Positions 3,206 through 40,685 of a DNA stretch of 41,383 bases are shown piece after piece (within the stretch, counting starts at the first letter, position 1; the number at the start of each line of letters is the position of its first letter). The notes beneath the pieces were generated by a model. It was not told the origin of the DNA. It was given only the letters and a program-made list of their open reading frames with translations, and searched no databases. The position numbers and the translations under genes are program-made. This stretch comes from Kiritimatiellales bacterium (lineage in GTDB: Bacteria; Verrucomicrobiota; Kiritimatiellia; Kiritimatiellales; Tichowtungiaceae). The DNA lies in NCBI GenBank assembly GCA_038213895.1, contig JBBQSL010000005.1, positions 1 to 41,383 on the forward strand, in the 5' to 3' direction.

Positions 3206-4390
3206 ATGATCCCAAAAAAACGCTTTGGAAAAACCGAATTACAAATGCCTGTACTCACCTGCGGCGGTATGCGCTACCAGCAGAGCTGGCAGGACGACGA
3301 GGCCGCCCGTCAATCTGTGACGGAGGAAAATCAAAAAAATCTCGAAGCCACCGTCCGCTACGCGCTCGACCTCGGCATCAATCACATCGAAACCGCCCGC
3401 GGCTACGGCACCTCGGAATTCCAGCTCGGAAAATTTCTGCCCTCACTTCCGCGCGACCAAATGATCGTCCAAACCAAGATTGGCCCGAAGGATACGCCCG
3501 CCGAGTTTCTGGAAACATTTGAAACATCCATGTCGGCCTTGAAGCTCGACTATGTTGACCTGCTCGCGATCCATGGGATTAACAACGAAGAAACCTTGCA
3601 ACAGGCTCTTAAAAGCATGCCTGCACTCGAACAGCTCAAAAAAGAAGGCCGCTGCCGTCACATCGGCTTCTCCACGCATGGCCCGGCACACACCGTTGTC
3701 AAAGCCATCGAAACGGGCCTCTTCGACTACGTCAACCTCCACTGGTACTTCGTGTACCACCCGACCAACCGCGCGCCGGTCGATGCCGCCGCCAAACTCG
3801 ACATGGGTGTCTTCATCATCAGTCCCGTCGATAAAGGCGGCAAACTCTACGAGCCGCCGCCCAAACTCATCGACCTTTGCCAGCCGCTCACCCCGATGGC
3901 CTTCAACGACCTCTACTGCCTGCGCGACCCGAAGGTTCATACGCTCTCCATCGGTGCCGCGCGTCCGTCGGATCTCGTCGAACACGTCGCCGCCGTCCAG
4001 AACATGGAAGAAAAATTTCCAACCCTTGGAAAAATCGAAGCCAAACTTTTCCAGGCCTTGGAAAAATCACTCGGTGCCGAGTGGGCGCACCGCTGGCACG
4101 AAGGGCTTCCGCGACAAGTTGACACGCCCGGCGAAATCAACATTCCGGAAATTTTGCGCCTCTGGATTTACGCCAAGGGACTAGACATGGTGGCGTTCGG
4201 TAAAATGCGCTACAATCTCATGGGCAATGCTGGACACTGGTTCCCGGGCCAAAACGCCGCCAACATCGATCAGGTTGATTTGACTGACGTCTTGAAAAAC
4301 AGCCCCTTCGCTCAGGAGATTCCCGCCATCCTGCGCGAGGCTCACCAGATGCTTTTCGACGAACCAAAAAAACGTCTCAGCGAGTCGTAA
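3206..4390 (+). CDS. aldo/keto reductase family oxidoreductase (long form, 394 aa)
   Basis: '[18 protein letters not shown]', a 'HGIN' motif and a TIM-barrel AKR pattern. An AAGGA ribosome-binding site lies 8 nt upstream. Confidence 0.7.
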
Positions 4391-4413
4391 GCGGCGGAAA
4401 CGGAATCAATTTA

Positions 4414-4454
4414 AGGCAGGCAGGATGCCTGCGATACGTACCGCGGGCTTCCAG
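4414..4454. repeat. dispersed copy related to the 33-bp tandem repeat (shared core CCTGCGATACGTACCGC)
   Basis: AAGGCAGGCAGGATGCCTGCGATACGTACCGCGGGCTTCCAG lies 24 nt after the AKR stop. The 17-nt core is identical to the one at 40650-40666. It is a hairpin-forming inverted repeat. Confidence 0.6.
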
Positions 4455-8906: not shown

Positions 8907-8955
8907 GGTAGGGACGGCTCGCCGAACCGTCCGCGACGCGTTCGGCGAACGCGCC
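8907..8955 (+). repeat. copy 1 (5' part only) of dispersed GC-rich palindromic repeat R
   Basis: GGTAGGGACGGCTCGCCGAACCGTCCGC lies 15 nt after the ppnP stop. It matches the 5' ends of the copies at 25827 and 35265 (reverse complement). Confidence 0.7.
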
Positions 8956-9073
8956 CCACCAAAGCATCTTGTCTGCGCAACAAACTTATTTTTTCTTTTT
9001 CTCTTTGTGGATCACCGGACCACCAGCCAAAACCACCACTTTCCATGTCTTCATATTGCATCTTCCTTTCAAT

Positions 9074-25526: not shown

Positions 25527-25765
25527 TGACACCATCTGAACATCCATGGGATCCGCTGCACGGCATTACGCTGGAGATGATGCTGAATCATCTGATTGAG
25601 CGGCACGGCTGGGAGGAAATGGGCCAGCGGATTAAAATCCGCTGTTTCCAACTTGATCCGTCGATTAAATCTAGCCTGACCTTTCTGCGCAAAACGCCTT
25701 GGGCTCGGGATAAAGTTGAGAAGTGGTTTATCGCCGACCTGCGCCGCCAGCAGCGCGGCAGATAG
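25523..25765 (+). CDS. VF530-family putative DNA-binding protein (DUF2132)
   Basis: 'HPWDPLHGITLEMMLNHLIERHGWEEMGQRIKIRCF...KTPWARDKVEKWFI'. The ATG overlaps the previous stop (ATGA). Confidence 0.65.
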   Translation: MMTPSEHPWDPLHGITLEMMLNHLIERHGWEEMGQRIKIRCFQLDPSIKSSLTFLRKTPWARDKVEKWFIADLRRQQRGR

Positions 25766-25826
25766 ACGCGTTGGTAGGGATCAGGAAACAGGAATCGTAC
25801 TAATTGCGTGTGAAATTCATCCGGGT

Positions 25827-26187
25827 GGTAGGGATGGTTCGCCGAGCCGTCCGCACGCACGCCAAGCCGACTGATATGAACTTAACTTAATTAGTATTTT
25901 TAACCACCCGCTTCGCTAGAGCCAATTTCGGAGTAAGGCGGAGAACCTCAGGCCATAAACAGAATAGATTTTTACCCACTGGGTACAGTTTATTCCAATC
26001 TTACTTTAACCCTCTGAACCCTCGGAGGTTCCTCTAGCAAAGCGGGTGGTATAAAATCTTTTCCGGACTACGATCAATACGAATCAAATTAATTCCGTAT
26101 GAGCAGGAGAGCCATTCCGCCGTGCGGCGCACCCAGCGGTCGCTCCCTACCCTTTGTTTTTTACCAAACATCATGCGTGATTGGTAT
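25827..26187 (+). repeat. copy 2 of dispersed repeat R (about 135 bp), interrupted by a 225-bp insertion
   Basis: 25827-25874 plus 26101-26187 align end-to-end with the reverse complement of 35132-35265. The intervening 25875-26099 is absent from that intact copy. Confidence 0.75.
25875..26099. mobile_element. MITE-like palindromic insertion (element A), nested inside repeat R
   Basis: Sub-terminal inverted repeats of 19 bp with one mismatch, ACCACCCGCTTCGCTAGAG / CTCTAGCAAAGCGGGTGGT. The termini are imperfect inverted repeats (18/25). The insertion sits exactly at ...CTGA|GCAGG... of repeat R. It may be flanked by a TGA direct repeat. Confidence 0.6.
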
Positions 26188-26288
26188 CGGGCTTCGGTTG
26201 TTTTTGAAAATGGAGCTTAAACGCGCTCGAAGATCGCGTTCCACCAAATCACCTTGGCAGAAAGCCAACTCTACTTCATATTTTGTCT

Positions 26289-26945
26289 ATGAATCTCGAC
26301 GTGCTTTATCACGACAACCATTTGCTGGCGGCGAATAAACCGGCGGGACTGCTGACGCAACCGAGCGGAACGGATAAGGATAATCTCGAAGATCGTTCCA
26401 AGGTTTGGATCAAGGAAACCAAGGGCAAGCCGGGCAATGTGTTTCTGCACGCCGTACACCGGCTTGATCAGGTGGTAAGCGGTATCGTGCTCTTCGCCTG
26501 CACCGATAAAGCACTTTCACGACTGAACGCCGACATGAGGGCGCACCGCTTTACCAAAATTTATCATGCTGTCGTTTCCGGTGTACCGCCGCAAAGCGAA
26601 GATTCACTGCGCCACTTCCTGATGCACGACGATTACCACGCCGAAGTTGCCAAAGAAGACGATCCCGATGCCCGCGAGTGTCTGCTCGACTACAAGGTAC
26701 TGAAGAAATCCGAAAATCAAACGCTGCTGGAAATCCAACTACACACCGGTCGCTATCACCAGATCCGCGCACAACTGGCGGCCATTAGCTGTCCGATTGT
26801 CGGCGACGAGAAATACGGCTCAAAAATAAAACTGCCCGGCGGCGCGATTGCCCTGCATCACGCGCGGCTGACGGTGATTCATCCGGTTAGCAAGGAAGAG
26901 ATCGTCGTAACAGCATCGTACCCAAAGCATTGGATCGAGGTATAA
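26289..26945 (+). CDS. RluA-family pseudouridine synthase
   Basis: The HRLD catalytic motif ('AVHRLDQVVSGIV') and 'TGRYHQIRAQLA'. The tabulated ORF opens with TTG at 26283; the first ATG is at 26289. Confidence 0.8.
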   Translation: MNLDVLYHDNHLLAANKPAGLLTQPSGTDKDNLEDRSKVWIKETKGKPGNVFLHAVHRLDQVVSGIVLFACTDKALSRLNADMRAHRFTKIYHAVVSGVPPQSEDSLRHFLMHDDYHAEVAKEDDPDARECLLDYKVLKKSENQTLLEIQLHTGRYHQIRAQLAAISCPIVGDEKYGSKIKLPGGAIALHHARLTVIHPVSKEEIVVTASYPKHWIEV

Positions 26946-28471: not shown

Positions 28472-29407
28472 TTATGCGCCTTCGGTACGGAGACGCGGAT
28501 CAAGCGCGTCGCGCAACGCATCGCCGAGCAAATTGAAGGCTAAAACTAATCCAAAAATGGCCAGCGTAACGAAGGTCATTTCCCACCAAACGCCCTGCCA
28601 GAGCCGCATGCGGGCACTATTGATCATAATACCCCACGACGGTTCGTTCTGGACACCGATACCAAGAAAACTCATGAAGACTTCCGTGCTCACGGCCGCC
28701 GGGAAACGTAGCGTAAAAGTTACGATTACGACGTGGAAGACGTTGGGAAGAATGTGACGGAAGAGAATCCGCGGCCAACTCAGCCCTAGCGCTTTCGCCG
28801 CCTGCACATAGGCCTGCTCCTTATGTTTGATCACTTCACCGCGAATCAGACGGCACAGTCCGACCCACGTGGTAAGTCCGATGCCGAGATAAATTCCCAT
28901 CAGCCCCTTTCCGACCACCATAGCAATGGCAAGAATGAAAAGCAGCCCCGGCATCGAAGCGACAGTAGAATAAAGCCAGACGACAAAGCTATCCACCCTG
29001 CCACCAAAATAGCCCGCCAGACAGCCGAAGAAAACGCCGATCGGAATAGCAATCAGCGCGGTGATGATACCAACCTTATAGGCAATGCGCGTCCCCTGAA
29101 TCAGACGCTGCATCACGTCACGACCCAACGCGTCAGTGCCCATCCAATGTTTGGAATATGGAGATTGATAGGCCTGATTCAGATCGGTCTTCTGATAAAA
29201 AGCAGTCTGATCTTTCGCCTTATAAACCTGATAAACCGCTTCGCCATAAACGGCCAGCGCGGTGTAAAAAACGACCACCCCGAGACAAACCATCGCGAGG
29301 CGGTTCTTTTTCAATCGCCGCCAAGCGTCGGACCAGAGCGAGATTCCTCGCTCCGGAGTTCTCGGCGGTCGGGGTTGGGGGTCAGTCCTTGAATTTTGAT
29401 ATTTCAT
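28472..29407 (-). CDS. peptide ABC transporter permease, OppC/DppC-like
   Basis: N-terminal 'SLWSDAWRRLKKNRLAMVCLGVVV' and the transporter motif region. Its ATG (29407-29405) and the first codons lie inside the left end of the adjacent transposon. Confidence 0.8.
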   Translation of the reverse strand: MKYQNSRTDPQPRPPRTPERGISLWSDAWRRLKKNRLAMVCLGVVVFYTALAVYGEAVYQVYKAKDQTAFYQKTDLNQAYQSPYSKHWMGTDALGRDVMQRLIQGTRIAYKVGIITALIAIPIGVFFGCLAGYFGGRVDSFVVWLYSTVASMPGLLFILAIAMVVGKGLMGIYLGIGLTTWVGLCRLIRGEVIKHKEQAYVQAAKALGLSWPRILFRHILPNVFHVVIVTFTLRFPAAVSTEVFMSFLGIGVQNEPSWGIMINSARMRLWQGVWWEMTFVTLAIFGLVLAFNLLGDALRDALDPRLRTEGA

Positions 29408-30456
29408 TCTTCATCTCCAACAAAGCACCCTCTGTCACCACTTCAACCTCGCGAACCGCTCTTGAAATCGTCGCCGCGTGACCCATATTTAACGCCTCGG
29501 AAATCCATTCGTTCTTTACGCTCGTATTCCGGCGAATAAGCCATGCGATAACCTTTTTCCGGTCATCGCCTTTTTTCAGCTTTTGCAACATCTCACGGTT
29601 AACTTTCAGGACGTCCAGACCGTTCCCAAGAAGTTTTTCAGCAGCCTGTTTATCATGTCGCGCAACGGCTCCGCCGCTGTGCGAATCCCGGCGTTTTCCC
29701 ATTGCAGCATTCTCCAGAGCACCGCGCACTTGTGAACAAAACTCTGCGGATCCGAAAATCCATCCCCTTCGGATCTGATCCCACATCTCATCCGCTTTCG
29801 CTGGGTTGTCGCTATGCAGAATGGCCAGGACTCTCTTCTGCATGGCCTTGCGATAGGCCGCTCTTCCGAGTGCTGTATCCTCAAAACTGCAACTCTTCAG
29901 AACCCGGTCCACCGTCAGCCAGCCGGGCCGCTCCGAAGGATAAAGATATCCCCGAAAACTGCTCCATTTGAAATCAGAAAGTGTGCCCTTCTCTAGATCA
30001 AAACAGTTCGCCCGCACCGGATTCAAATGAATATAACTGGATACAGTAGAAAAATACTCTCCACCATCTACCAAAAGGGCTTTATATCGGCCTTGGAAAA
30101 GATGACCCCAGACCTTATGCCGGGCATTAAAGCGCTGAGTATACGTCCCCTGAAGCCACCGCATACCATCCACGAGATTCGGTTCCGGTGTTTCCAGCAG
30201 AAGATGATAGTGATTACCCATCAGGACAAAGACGTGGACTCTCCATCCACATCGATTGCACGCATCCCCGAGAGTTTTAAGAAACATCTCGTGATCCTGC
30301 TGGTCTTTAAAAACCGGATCCTGACGGTTACCGCGGCACATCACATGATATACTGCCCCGGGGAATTGAACTCTTAACGGTCTTGGCATGAGAATCATGT
30401 AAACAAACTACAAAGGTAGCGTCAATCGAAAATATCAAAATTCAAGGACTGACCCC
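29378..30456. mobile_element. insertion element carrying a Y1 (IS200-like) + DnaA-HTH transposase, bounded by 27-bp perfect terminal inverted repeats
   Basis: 29378-29404 is GGGGTCAGTCCTTGAATTTTGATATTT. 30430-30456 is its exact reverse complement. A single gene lies inside. The right flank has a tandem 11-bp duplication GACCCCACTAA (30451-30472). Confidence 0.7.
29382..30398 (-). CDS. transposase: N-terminal Y1 HuH (IS200-like) domain + C-terminal DnaA-type helix-turn-helix
   Basis: 'VYHVMCRGNRQ' and HuH 'MGNHYHLLLE'. The C-terminus 'KVIAWLIRRNTSVKNEWISEALNMGHAATISRAVREV' is a DnaA-C-like HTH. The stop codon sits in the left inverted repeat. Confidence 0.75.
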   Translation of the reverse strand: MILMPRPLRVQFPGAVYHVMCRGNRQDPVFKDQQDHEMFLKTLGDACNRCGWRVHVFVLMGNHYHLLLETPEPNLVDGMRWLQGTYTQRFNARHKVWGHLFQGRYKALLVDGGEYFSTVSSYIHLNPVRANCFDLEKGTLSDFKWSSFRGYLYPSERPGWLTVDRVLKSCSFEDTALGRAAYRKAMQKRVLAILHSDNPAKADEMWDQIRRGWIFGSAEFCSQVRGALENAAMGKRRDSHSGGAVARHDKQAAEKLLGNGLDVLKVNREMLQKLKKGDDRKKVIAWLIRRNTSVKNEWISEALNMGHAATISRAVREVEVVTEGALLEMKNEISKFKD

Positions 30457-34266: not shown

Positions 34267-35022
34267 TTATATTCCTGCTTTGACAATATCAATAAAAGAA
34301 CGGACTTCGAGAGCCGCGCCGCCGATCAAGCCACCGTCAATATCAGGTTGCGACAGCAATTCCTTGGCATTGGAAGCCTTCATACTGCCACCGTACTGAA
34401 TACGCAGGCCCTTAGCCGCTTTTTCGCCCACCATATCGCGAATGATACTACGAATAAAGGCATGTACTTCCTGCGCCTGTGCGCTGGTAGCCGTTTTCCC
34501 AGTACCGATCGCCCAGACCGGCTCATAGGCCACCACGACATTTTCAAACTGCTCAGCCGTAATATCGGTCAGACTGCCACGCACCTGCGCCTCAACAACC
34601 TTCTCGGTATTTCCCGCTTCGCGGTCGGCAAGTTTCTCACCAACACAAACGATTGGGCGTAGATTTTTTTCCAGAGCCTTCTTGACCTTCTTGTTCACCC
34701 AAAAATCGGTTTCCTTATAATACTCGCGGCGCTCGCTGTGGCCGAGAATAACGTACTTAACGAACAGCTCTTTGAGCATGGTGTGGGAGATTTCGCCAGT
34801 ATAAGCCCCGTCATCTTCCGAACTCATGTTCTGACAACCGAGCTTGATCTGACTATCAGCCAACACGTCACTAATCGACTTAAGTGTCGTGAACGGAGGA
34901 CAAACCACCACATCGACACCGACACAGTCATCCAACTCGCTCTTGATACCTTGAATAAGGGTCAGCGCCTCAGCGACCGTCTTGTTCATCTTCCAATTTC
35001 CAGCAATAATCTTCTTTCTCAT
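34267..35022 (-). CDS. tpiA: triose-phosphate isomerase
   Basis: 'IIAGNWKMN' and 'YVILGHSERR' are TIM signatures. Confidence 0.95.
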   Translation of the reverse strand: MRKKIIAGNWKMNKTVAEALTLIQGIKSELDDCVGVDVVVCPPFTTLKSISDVLADSQIKLGCQNMSSEDDGAYTGEISHTMLKELFVKYVILGHSERREYYKETDFWVNKKVKKALEKNLRPIVCVGEKLADREAGNTEKVVEAQVRGSLTDITAEQFENVVVAYEPVWAIGTGKTATSAQAQEVHAFIRSIIRDMVGEKAAKGLRIQYGGSMKASNAKELLSQPDIDGGLIGGAALEVRSFIDIVKAGI

Positions 35023-35131
35023 ACAAATCTCCTGCTTCCGGTTAAAAATGAGCCGAGAATCTACCTAACTGAGCCTCGATAGGCAACGCTCAAAACTCAA
35101 ATCCAGTTCATTTCATTGATCTCCATTCATT

Positions 35132-35265
35132 ATACCCATCACGCATACTGTTCGGTAAAAAAACAAAGGGGAGTGAGCGACCGCCGGGCGCGCCGCACGG
35201 TGGAATGGCTCTCCTGCTCAGTCGACTTGGCGAGCGTGCGGACGGCTCGGCGAGCCGTCCCTACC
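35132..35265 (-). repeat. copy 3 (intact) of dispersed repeat R
   Basis: The reverse complement begins GGTAGGGACGGCTCGCCGAGCCGTCCGCACGC, a perfect 21-nt palindrome GGACGGCTCG-C-CGAGCCGTCC. It ends with a TATAAT-containing segment about 110 nt upstream of the tpiA ATG. Confidence 0.75.
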
Positions 35266-35278
35266 GACGGAATGACTA

Positions 35279-36181
35279 TTAGGCCCAGAGATTTTCGGGG
35301 TAAACACCGGCAGTGACGAGCGCGCGGATACCCGCCATTACTTGCGGCTTGTCGTCGGCATAGGTGACGCCCATCCATTTTTCGTTGGTAGGCAGAACCT
35401 CTACAGTGGTCTGGCCACGTTTGATCAGGTCGTCAACGACTTCCAATAAGAAAAATTCACTTTTGAGTTCTGTTCCGCGCCGCGCGAGAAATTCAGCAAA
35501 GCCCCGATCCAACGCTTCGAACAACCCCGGTGTGAAGCCCCAGGTGTTCATGGAAACCATATCGTCGTCGGCCATCGGTTTCAGTTCGTTATTTTCTTCA
35601 TACCGAATCACGCCGTCCGCTTTGCGCTCAATGTTGTAGCGCTCGACAATGTGCCGAAGCTTCCCGTTCTGCACGTCACAGAAACCACGCGCCACGCCAC
35701 CGTAAGGCGATAGCGTGTTTTTGATATAAAAGCCGACCATGCAACTTTCGGTGCTTTTCACGTCCATTGCCATCAGCCGTTTAGCGATGACTTGAAACGA
35801 TTGGCATCCATAAAAGTCGTCGGCGTTAATTACCGCAAACGGTTCGTGAACGACGGGGCGCGCCATAAGAACCGCCTGACCGGTGCCCCACGGTTTGGTG
35901 CGACCTGCCGGCATCAAAAATCCGGACGGAAGTTTGTCCATGGTTTGGAAAACGTATTCGACCTGAATTTTTCCGTCGAGCTTACGTCCGATCACTTCCT
36001 TGAAGGCTTCTTCGATATCAGGACGAATAATAAAAACGACTTTGCCGAAACCCGCTTGAATCGCGTCGTACACTGAATAATCCAAAACAATTTCGCCGGA
36101 CGGGCCGACGGGGTCAATCTGTTTGAGCCCGCCGTAGCGGCTACCGATTCCTGCGGCCATAATCACGAGAGTTGGTTTCAT
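35279..36181 (-). CDS. sugar-phosphate nucleotidyltransferase (NTP-transferase fold)
   Basis: Gly-rich NTP loop 'LVIMAAGIGSRYGGLKQ' and 'VINADDFYG'. The start overlaps the upstream gene's stop by 4 nt. Confidence 0.6.
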   Translation of the reverse strand: MKPTLVIMAAGIGSRYGGLKQIDPVGPSGEIVLDYSVYDAIQAGFGKVVFIIRPDIEEAFKEVIGRKLDGKIQVEYVFQTMDKLPSGFLMPAGRTKPWGTGQAVLMARPVVHEPFAVINADDFYGCQSFQVIAKRLMAMDVKSTESCMVGFYIKNTLSPYGGVARGFCDVQNGKLRHIVERYNIERKADGVIRYEENNELKPMADDDMVSMNTWGFTPGLFEALDRGFAEFLARRGTELKSEFFLLEVVDDLIKRGQTTVEVLPTNEKWMGVTYADDKPQVMAGIRALVTAGVYPENLWA

Positions 36182-40511: not shown

Positions 40512-40565
40512 AAAGAGGAAGGTAGCAAACGGCTGAACAAATGGCAATCCGCAGGGTCTAATATA

Positions 40566-40685
40566 GACAAGGCAGGCTGGAAGCCCGCGGTACGTATAGA
40601 CAAGGCAGGCTGGAAGCCCGCGTTACGTATCGACAAGGCAGGCTGGAAGCCTGCGATACGTACCGCAGGCTTTCAGCCTGCCTTG
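40566..40685. repeat. three tandem copies of a 33-bp repeat (GACAAGGCAGGCTGGAAGCCCGCGGTACGTATA); the last copy extends into a 22-bp-stem hairpin
   Basis: Units lie at 40566-40598, 40599-40631 and 40632 onward. The third unit runs into CAAGGCAGGCTGGAAGCCTGCG-ATACGTA-CCGCAGGCTTTCAGCCTGCCTTG. The region lies in the divergent intergenic space between the S8 peptidase and the next gene. Confidence 0.8.

Follow-up and report, generated by a model that had tools for sequence, protein, structure and literature searches.

A dispersed intergenic repeat of a Kiritimatiellales bacterium is probably a head-to-head pair of GTAG-tagged REPs of a widespread RAYT-associated family

Introduction

Repetitive extragenic palindromic (REP) sequences with a GTAG tetranucleotide occur in the Planctomycetes-Verrucomicrobia-Chlamydiae (PVC) superphylum, including Opitutus terrae and Rhodopirellula baltica, according to the sections of the GTAG-REP survey used here (PMC3733652). 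The same sections report that tag variants reading GTGG exist, that two units can form head-to-head (HH) dimers whose spacers of 1-2 bp or 20-100 bp tend to be conserved, and that GTAG REPs prefer the vicinity of the 3' end of the upstream open reading frame (ORF) (PMC3733652). In Escherichia coli, the transposase TnpA_REP needs GTAG to bind and cleave single-stranded REP DNA, and its CT cut site can be distant from the hairpin and on either side of it (PMC3479197). Here we describe R, a dispersed intergenic repeat in a 41,383-nt stretch of DNA from a Kiritimatiellales bacterium (contig JBBQSL010000005.1; "the window" below means this whole stretch, and all copy counts in the source organism refer to this single contig). 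We conclude that R is probably a REPIN-like HH pair of GTAG-tagged REPs that belongs to a widespread family associated with REP-associated tyrosine transposases (RAYTs). The original prediction, made from the letters of the window, had offered several readings of R. The one that likened it to REPs and bacterial interspersed mosaic elements (BIMEs) was right: the units are GTAG-tagged REPs in HH pairs and are RAYT-associated elsewhere.

R resembles the GTAG REPs, as these are described in the survey sections, in many respects (PMC3733652). GTAG stands at the foot of a GC-rich stem whose two sides vary in a complementary manner, and the GTGG variant is seen in the second unit of copy 1. The dimers are HH with spacers in the two described size ranges, they lie between convergent or unidirectional genes near the upstream stop codon, and the TAG of the tag can be a stop codon, as is seen for R's family in a Verrucomicrobiota metagenome-assembled genome (MAG; L076) (PMC3733652). 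The stems differ: those given as typical have 6-9 bp, whereas R has 10 bp and a 1-nt loop. With the 24 published GTAG families R was compared by their description, and Kiritimatiellales is not sampled in that account (PMC3733652). R is also similar to the REPIN-RAYT system as outlined in two reports (PMC3116915; 10.1101/2022.05.22.493013), in which two inverted REPs and a spacer make one long hairpin and the same REPs lie on either side of the RAYT gene, as is the case for R's family in L076. Unlike in a REPIN, the stems of R's two units differ within each pair, and the long form of R has a tail beyond the REPs. REPINs are portrayed there as mostly vertical within lineages, whereas the 25-mer of R is found in many phyla and not in the closest relatives sampled. 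The REP/BIME and TnpA_REP system of E. coli shares with R a 5' GTAG guide-like tetranucleotide with a hairpin, a Y1/HUH enzyme that acts on single-stranded DNA and an alternating orientation of units, although E. coli REP stems are imperfect and those of R's family are near-perfect palindromes (PMC3479197).

Location and architecture of R

The sequence GGTAGGGAYGGYTCGCCGARCCGTCC is present at three intergenic sites of the window. A search with the 22-mer GGGACGGCTCGCCGAGCCGTCC, allowing up to three mismatches, gave five strand-matches, all confined to the three R sites, against an expectation of 0.00 from 100 shuffles. Copy 1 starts at 8907 on the plus strand with GGTAGGGACGGCTCGCCGAACCGTCC, copy 2 at 25827 on the plus strand with GGTAGGGATGGTTCGCCGAGCCGTCC, and copy 3 at 35265 on the minus strand with GGTAGGGACGGCTCGCCGAGCCGTCC. 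Both direct reading of the sites and the 22-mer match test thus confirmed the three predicted copies, which amount to five to six REP units in 41 kb. Copy 1 lies between the convergent genes ppnP and PHP-domain gene, and copies 2 and 3 (the long copies) lie between unidirectional genes and are oriented the same way as these genes. The distance from the upstream stop codon to R is 14 nt in copy 1 (ppnP), 61 nt in copy 2 (VF530 gene) and 13 nt in copy 3 (nucleotidyltransferase gene), and the distance from the long copies to the downstream ATG is 101 nt (rluA) and 109 nt (tpiA), in keeping with the predicted 15-65 and 90-110 nt.

Each unit consists of the GTAG tetranucleotide and a GC-rich 21-nt palindrome centred on TCG-C-CGA. 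Two units are placed head-to-head, and the element opens with GGTAGGG and closes with CCCTACC. The first units, REP-A, were identified by reading the sequence and by the 22-mer match at 8907-8932 (plus strand), 25827-25852 (plus strand) and 35240-35265 (minus strand), and all three read G-GTAG-GGA. The three sites share this start, as had been predicted, but the palindrome is not perfect in all of them: it is exact and perfect in copy 3 only, whereas the 10-bp stem has one C·A mismatch in copy 1 and two T·G wobbles in copy 2.

Copy 1 is a compact form of 54 nt, in which REP-A (26 nt) is followed by GC (2 nt) and the inverted second REP GACGCGTTCGGCGAACGCGCCCCACC (26 nt). The second REP (8935-8960, minus strand) has a GTGG tag and reads GGTGGGGCGCGTTCGCCGAACGCGTC on the minus strand. 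It is seen in the sequence, in folding beyond shuffles (z = -3.2 / -5.0) and in 55-nt matches of copy 1 to pairs in other genomes (L095, L073 and L045; up to 91%). Copy 1 had been taken for the 5' part of R only, and 8907-8960 is instead a complete pair.

The long form, represented by copies 2 and 3, consists of REP-A, a 71-nt spacer, an inverted second unit and a common 36-nt tail. Copy 2 occupies 25827-25874 and 26103-26187, and copy 3 occupies 35265-35132 on the minus strand. Aligned without the insertion in copy 2, they cover 133/134 nt, with 120 of 134 positions identical (89%), and a repeat search lists two matches, one for each half (58 nt at 86%, 63 nt at 92%). On the 3' side the similarity does not go beyond GGTAT, and on the 5' side it fades out within about 10 nt of GGTAGGG. 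By sequence and alignment, the spacer of copy 2 is split into a left half (25853-25874, plus strand), whose last letters are the TGA duplicated at the insertion, and a right half (26103-26125, plus strand), and the spacer of copy 3 is intact (35195-35239, minus strand). The ends of the spacer, CCGCACG and CGTGCGG, pair with each other as an inner helix. The inverted second unit of copy 2 (26126-26151, minus strand; sequence, and flanks in other genomes) reads GGCGCACCCAGCGGTCGCTCCCTACC on the plus strand and carries GTAG on the minus strand, and that of copy 3 (35168-35194, plus strand; sequence and alignment) reads GGCGCGCCCGGCGGTCGCTCACTCCCC on the R strand and has a mutated tag. The second unit of the long form is GGCGCRCCCRGCGGTCGCTC followed by CCTACC in copy 2 or ACTCCCC in copy 3; it is a decayed version of the GGCGCGCCCRGCGGTCGCGCCCYACC unit, which is intact in L045, L021 and L110, and in L110 a similar second unit is followed by TTTTTAC. 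The tail common to both copies was delimited by sequence and alignment, and in copy 2 also by folding. It lies at 26152-26187 (plus strand) in copy 2, where a T-run (CTTTGTTTTTT) is followed by ACCAAACATCATGCGTGATTGGTAT, and at 35132-35167 (minus strand) in copy 3, where TATAAT (35134-35129) is half within and half beyond the repeat. The long copies have the outer tag helix as well as the inner CCGCACG/CGTGCGG helix, and their two units are unlike in sequence. Folded at full length, they are no more stable than shuffles (z = 0.03 and -1.8).

The interruption of copy 2 by a 225-bp element, as predicted, is real. The insertion (25875-26102; sequence, repeat search and alignment) is 228 nt long with TGA at both junctions, and may be taken as an element of 225 nt with a duplication of 3 bp; such a duplication has a probability of about 1/64 by accident. 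Copy 3 shows the undisturbed insertion site. The insertion has 40% GC, compared with 52% for the window, imperfect terminal inverted repeats of 20 nt (14/20) and a 26-nt subterminal inverted repeat (25896-25921 / 26032-26057; fold z = -4.7). A second copy was not found in the window, 170 loci, plasmids or phages, and the core was not found in viral contigs. Since the insertion is single-copy in the searched data, the term miniature inverted-repeat transposable element (MITE) describes its form and not a demonstrated family. The central loop of copy 2 appears to have later received this unrelated MITE-like insertion.

A small ORF from a GTG in the spacer was considered and rejected, because a T6/T7 indel puts it in different frames in the two long copies. 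Fifty-four nt upstream of copy 2, immediately after the VF530 stop codon, there is another GGTAGGGAT (25773-25797); its hairpin is not convincing, and it may be a decayed REP remnant. The sole other assembly of the organism's tpiA region, the 1.3-kb Logan contig L119 (SRR19962010), ends inside copy 3 (positions 1-73); this is expected if R or its units recur elsewhere in the genome, and is a weak indication.

The REP family in other genomes

A scan of the GTDB species-representative genomes with GGGAYGGYTCGCCGARCCGTCC matched at least 118 genome stretches, and the 22-mer is found in at least eight phyla. By record title, among the matches listed, Verrucomicrobiota make up the majority, with about 16 matches in Lentisphaerota/Victivallales, 13 in Acidobacteriota, 6 in Planctomycetota, 5 in Kiritimatiellota, 5 in Rhodothermales/Bacteroidales, and the remainder in Sumerlaeales, Chloroflexota and Deltaproteobacteria MAGs; several MAGs have 5-9 matching contigs each among these matches. 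The flanks reveal a usual architecture, GGTAGGG-stem-TCGCCGA-stem-CC, spacer, GG-stem-TCGGCGA-stem-CCCTACC. GGTA stands directly before the palindrome in 109 of the 132 matches listed, and an inverted partner ending in CCCTACC is found within 160 nt in at least 62 of the 132, most commonly with a spacer of 2 nt. The 22-mer is usually the first unit of an HH pair. A stop-free-frame test of extragenic position in these genomes was uninformative in the GC-rich MAGs.

The stem of the REP covaries. We used 26 distinct GTAG-N7-TCGSCGA-N7 units that do not match the scan pattern, so that variable stems were not preselected. In these units, 95% of the cells of the 10-bp stem are paired, compared with 72% in shuffles, and all seven variable stem pairs (7/7) have changes on both sides. 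None of 500 shuffles (0 of 500) reached the covariation score of 0.568 (versus 0.150), and pairing falls to 33-48% when the partner is shifted by 1-3 columns. In 25 of the 26 units, the GTAG strand has C as its loop base, which gives the units a defined polarity. At the one stem pair that the scan left open, C-G was found 118 times, T-A 9 times, T·G 3 times and C·A 2 times, so the compensated pair (9) outnumbers the single changes (5). This indicates that the REP hairpin is under selection.

A variant of the unit, GGGATGGCTCGCCGAGCCGTCC, occurs in Chthoniobacterales/Terrimicrobiaceae-type MAGs (L014, L019, L040, L086, L114, L116 and L109), where a conserved module of about 35 nt (GTCGATTCCACCCGTTTCGGTGTCAAGATGGTAT) comes after it and a CCCTACC tag lies 7-10 nt upstream, a tail-to-tail arrangement that has a conserved flank of its own. 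Homology of the GGTAT in R's tail to the ...ATGGTAT module adjacent to REP-A in Chthoniobacterales-type loci was rejected as a coincidence, because GGTAT within 45 nt of REP-A occurs at chance level. The REP-A 22-mer is also present in ten IMG/VR contigs that are classified as viral (L120-L129).

Association with RAYT genes

When six-frame ORFs of the REP-bearing loci were screened for motifs, two RAYT-like genes were identified, in L076 and L117. In L076, a 151-aa ORF scores 98.3 bits on the NCBIfam model REP_Tyr_transpos (cutoff 80), and pairs of REP-A, a spacer and a second unit (REP-B) lie on both flanks of the gene. The downstream REP-A is identical to the 26-mer of copy 3 in the window, and the gene has its stop codon in the TAG within the GTAG tag of this unit. 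The L076 locus is a classic REPtron. For the RAYT-like gene of L117 the score is 72 bits, and the pairs on its flanks belong to a different GTAG REP.

Genomes of at least eight phyla contain exact matches to the 25-mer GTAGGGACGGCTCGCCGAGCCGTCC, and it was not found in a partly redundant set of about 180 kb from the closest relatives. An identical REP across many phyla that is not found in the nearest relatives sampled is the most unusual aspect of R. We offer as speculation, and regard as rather improbable, that the REP and its RAYT spread horizontally between distant bacteria, perhaps via viral contigs that carry the REP, and not vertically, and that the long form is a lineage-specific derivative that acquired a U-run and moves as a ready-made 3'-end module.

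Relatives and the origin of the long form

Homologues of triosephosphate isomerase (TIM) and RluA at 85-95% identity carry the names Kiritimatiellales or Pontiellaceae, which places the host in this group. For comparison we used contigs of close relatives, in which RluA is 86-90% and TIM 91-92% identical. The synteny of VF530 and rluA is kept in relatives, with spacers of 73 and 117 nt and without R. In 181 kb of the closest relatives (some redundant), no REP unit of R's family, no R and no insert were found, compared with three sites in the 41 kb of the window. Upstream of tpiA, the relatives L159, L161 and L163 have pgk or a sensor kinase and the window has nucleotidyltransferase-R (35022-35280). 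Because of this difference in gene order, copy 3 sits at a rearrangement junction, or synteny break. In L168 and L169, hairpins of the GGCTGGAAGCC type lie downstream of VF530, in the same place as R in the window.

Several findings weigh against the conclusion that R as a whole is an HH pair of mobile REPs. No RAYT gene flanked by R's REP was found in the window, where the sole Y1 transposase has unrelated inverted repeats. The long form is known from two copies at 89%, and a scan of the JGI metagenomes with the spacer 18-mer GAGCAGGAGAGCCATTCC gave 29 matches, all unrelated in context. The 36-nt tail lies outside both REPs and is not predicted by a simple REPIN model. In the long copies the second unit forms a poor hairpin, which in copy 3 has also lost its GTAG tag, and the shuffle-level folding of the long copies has been mentioned above. 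Finally, among 72 pairs of the family only 5 have a T-run after them (T fraction 0.30 against a background of 0.21, a weak test), and terminator activity is therefore not general to the family.

In another explanation, the REP units are mobile but the long copies arose by a one-off segmental duplication or by recombination between REP sites, so that the 135 nt are not a repeat family. There are only two long copies, none was found elsewhere in the data searched, their similarity goes past both REPs (about 10 nt upstream and the 36-nt tail), copy 3 is at a synteny break, and its second tag is mutated. However, the CT at which TnpA_REP cuts can be some way off the hairpin, which allows flanks to move with the REP (PMC3479197), and the survey sections report conserved spacers in HH dimers (PMC3733652). 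L110 has a similar second unit followed by TTTTTAC, and for the source organism "none elsewhere" covers this one contig. Overall, we consider a one-off duplication possible, if unlikely, and an HH pair of GTAG REPs the better description of R.

R and the promoters and 3' ends of neighboring genes

Among known elements, the kind nearest to the predicted combination of terminator and promoter is the Correia element (NEMIS) of Neisseria, a small intergenic inverted-repeat element of similar size. Correia elements are MITEs of 100-155 bp that can carry promoters, terminators and integration host factor (IHF) sites, and their terminal inverted repeats are 26 bp long, the duplication is TA, and a GTAG tag is absent. 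R has no sequence similarity to them, and no promoter is detectable in R.

According to the original prediction, R is a portable cassette whose 5' palindrome terminates the upstream gene and whose 3' tail contains a promoter for the downstream gene. The long copies do lie between unidirectional genes and are co-oriented with them, and TATAAT can be read across the 3' boundary of copy 3. In addition, tpiA of the window is without the pgk or sensor-kinase neighbor of the relatives and so needs a promoter of its own. However, a consensus scanner flagged no sigma-70-like site and no terminator inside R at both long loci. TATAAT is present in the tpiA copy, as predicted, but it spans the end of the repeat, with only TAT within R and the other half in flanking sequence; it has no -35 partner at 16-18 nt, and copy 2 has TATCGG at the equivalent place. 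The promoter-like hexamers of both genes, spaced by 17 nt, are downstream of R: TTGGCA-N17-CATATT upstream of rluA (26254-26282, plus strand; scanner and relatives) and TTGCCT-N17-TAGATT upstream of tpiA (35086-35058, minus strand; conserved in L163/L164). The close relatives compared, which are without R, all have TTGGCAGA about 40 nt before the ATG of rluA, with CAnTAT 17 nt further on, and L163/L164, which are also without R, have about 80 nt before the ATG of tpiA in common with the window, including TTGCCT-N17-TARATT. Therefore, the tail of R is not needed as the promoter of rluA or tpiA, and the idea of a promoter at the 3' end of R is not upheld. The same holds for a terminator at the 5' palindrome, since this has a loop of 1 nt and is followed by GCACGC, without a T-run. 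We thus judge the terminator-plus-promoter cassette very unlikely.

In the long form, the T-run (CCCTTTGTTTTTT) adjoins the end of the whole pair and not the 5' palindrome. A tag helix of 8 bp, GGUAGGGA/UCCCUACC, closes the long element directly before the U-run CUUUGUUUUUU, in a large multi-branch structure. For copy 2, both the minimum-free-energy structure and the centroid structure show the tag helix followed by the U-run, whether the insertion is included or removed. A 3'-end role, as a terminator or as an mRNA stabiliser, is plausible from these predicted structures, for the long form alone.

R as a possible small RNA

It had also been proposed that R represents a small RNA gene family. 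In such an explanation R would be a small structured RNA, either from a gene family of small RNAs (sRNAs) or derived from 3' untranslated regions, with a functional conserved spacer and tail. The 3' half of the spacer and the second unit are the best kept part between the long copies (63 nt, 92%), the stem changes of copy 2 are T·G wobbles on the transcribed strand, and there is a T-run after the structure. However, R has no Rfam match at the gathering score or at E <= 10: at the gathering score the whole window gave only a tRNA, and at E <= 10 the region 25760-26290 gave noise. The fold z-scores given above are at shuffle level. The two differing paired positions of the tail hairpin are not compensatory, with a G·G mismatch in copy 3. 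The consensus scanner found no promoter upstream of R, and the JGI metagenome scan found no homologue of the spacer, so that only two long copies are known in all the data searched. These results do not bear out an sRNA gene family, and we regard this explanation as extremely unlikely.

Model and implications

By homology, R would be mobilised by a RAYT-type enzyme, and a possible course of events can be drawn by analogy with the described systems. A REP-associated tyrosine (HUH/Y1) transposase would bind the units as hairpins of single-stranded DNA, would require the GTAG tag and would cut nearby. Repeated rounds of this reaction may scatter the pairs into intergenic DNA, mostly just downstream of genes. 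R would then be transcribed within the 3' end of the upstream gene, and in the long form the tag helix before the U-run would probably act as a 3'-end hairpin, as a terminator or an mRNA stabiliser, according to the predicted structure. R would not supply the promoters of rluA or tpiA.

A striking repeat is thus accounted for by a standard class of selfish or domesticated DNA in bacteria, and the false lead of a mobile promoter is removed. GTAG-REP pairs are extended to Kiritimatiellales. One REP sequence across many phyla and beside a RAYT gene bears on whether the inheritance of REP-RAYT systems is strictly vertical. In annotation, it would be wrong to call small ORFs or sRNA genes at R sites, and these sites mark likely points of assembly breaks and rearrangement.

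Other elements in the window

The Y1/HUH transposase gene of the window is a RAYT-family gene (ORF 29382-30398, minus strand) in an element at 29378-30456, recognised by PF01797, by its inverted repeats and by the empty site in relatives. The ORF matches PF01797 with E = 2.9e-13, contains an HUH motif (HYH) and YIHLNP, and scores 56.6 bits, under the NCBIfam RAYT cutoff. The element is bounded by perfect 27-nt inverted repeats (GGGGTCAGTCCTTGAATTTTGATATTT, first letters GGGGTCAG). The GTAG-REP survey, in the sections consulted, defines a TIRYT or TIRtron class with a RAYT-like Y1 transposase and long terminal inverted repeats with GGGGWSAS instead of REPs (PMC3733652), and by its sequence the element is of this TIRYT type. 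This transposase was considered as the mobiliser of R and dropped: tblastn against the 118 REP-bearing loci gave no match, and the repeats are unrelated to R. By sequence comparison, it is probably not the cognate enzyme of R. The 1.08-kb element sits exactly at the ATGA overlap of oppB and oppC, which is intact in the relatives L159, L161 and L163, and its right-hand inverted repeat gives oppC a new ATG and N-terminus.

Palindromic repeats of a second family are found at 40562-40685, where three tandem 33-nt units are followed by an inverted copy (...AAGGCAGGCTGGAAGCCYGCG.TACGTA...), and a related copy lies at 4406-4454. The motif TTCCAA-N3-TTGGAA, with at most one mismatch, occurs 15 times in the window, compared with 0.21 expected from shuffles (positions 4017, 4049, 7214, 8778, 17620, 18822, 19156, 19281, 20015, 26396, 29142, 31315, 31346, 36189 and 37969). 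Many of these occurrences are inside ORFs, and this could be an uptake-like, protein-binding or methylation-related motif.

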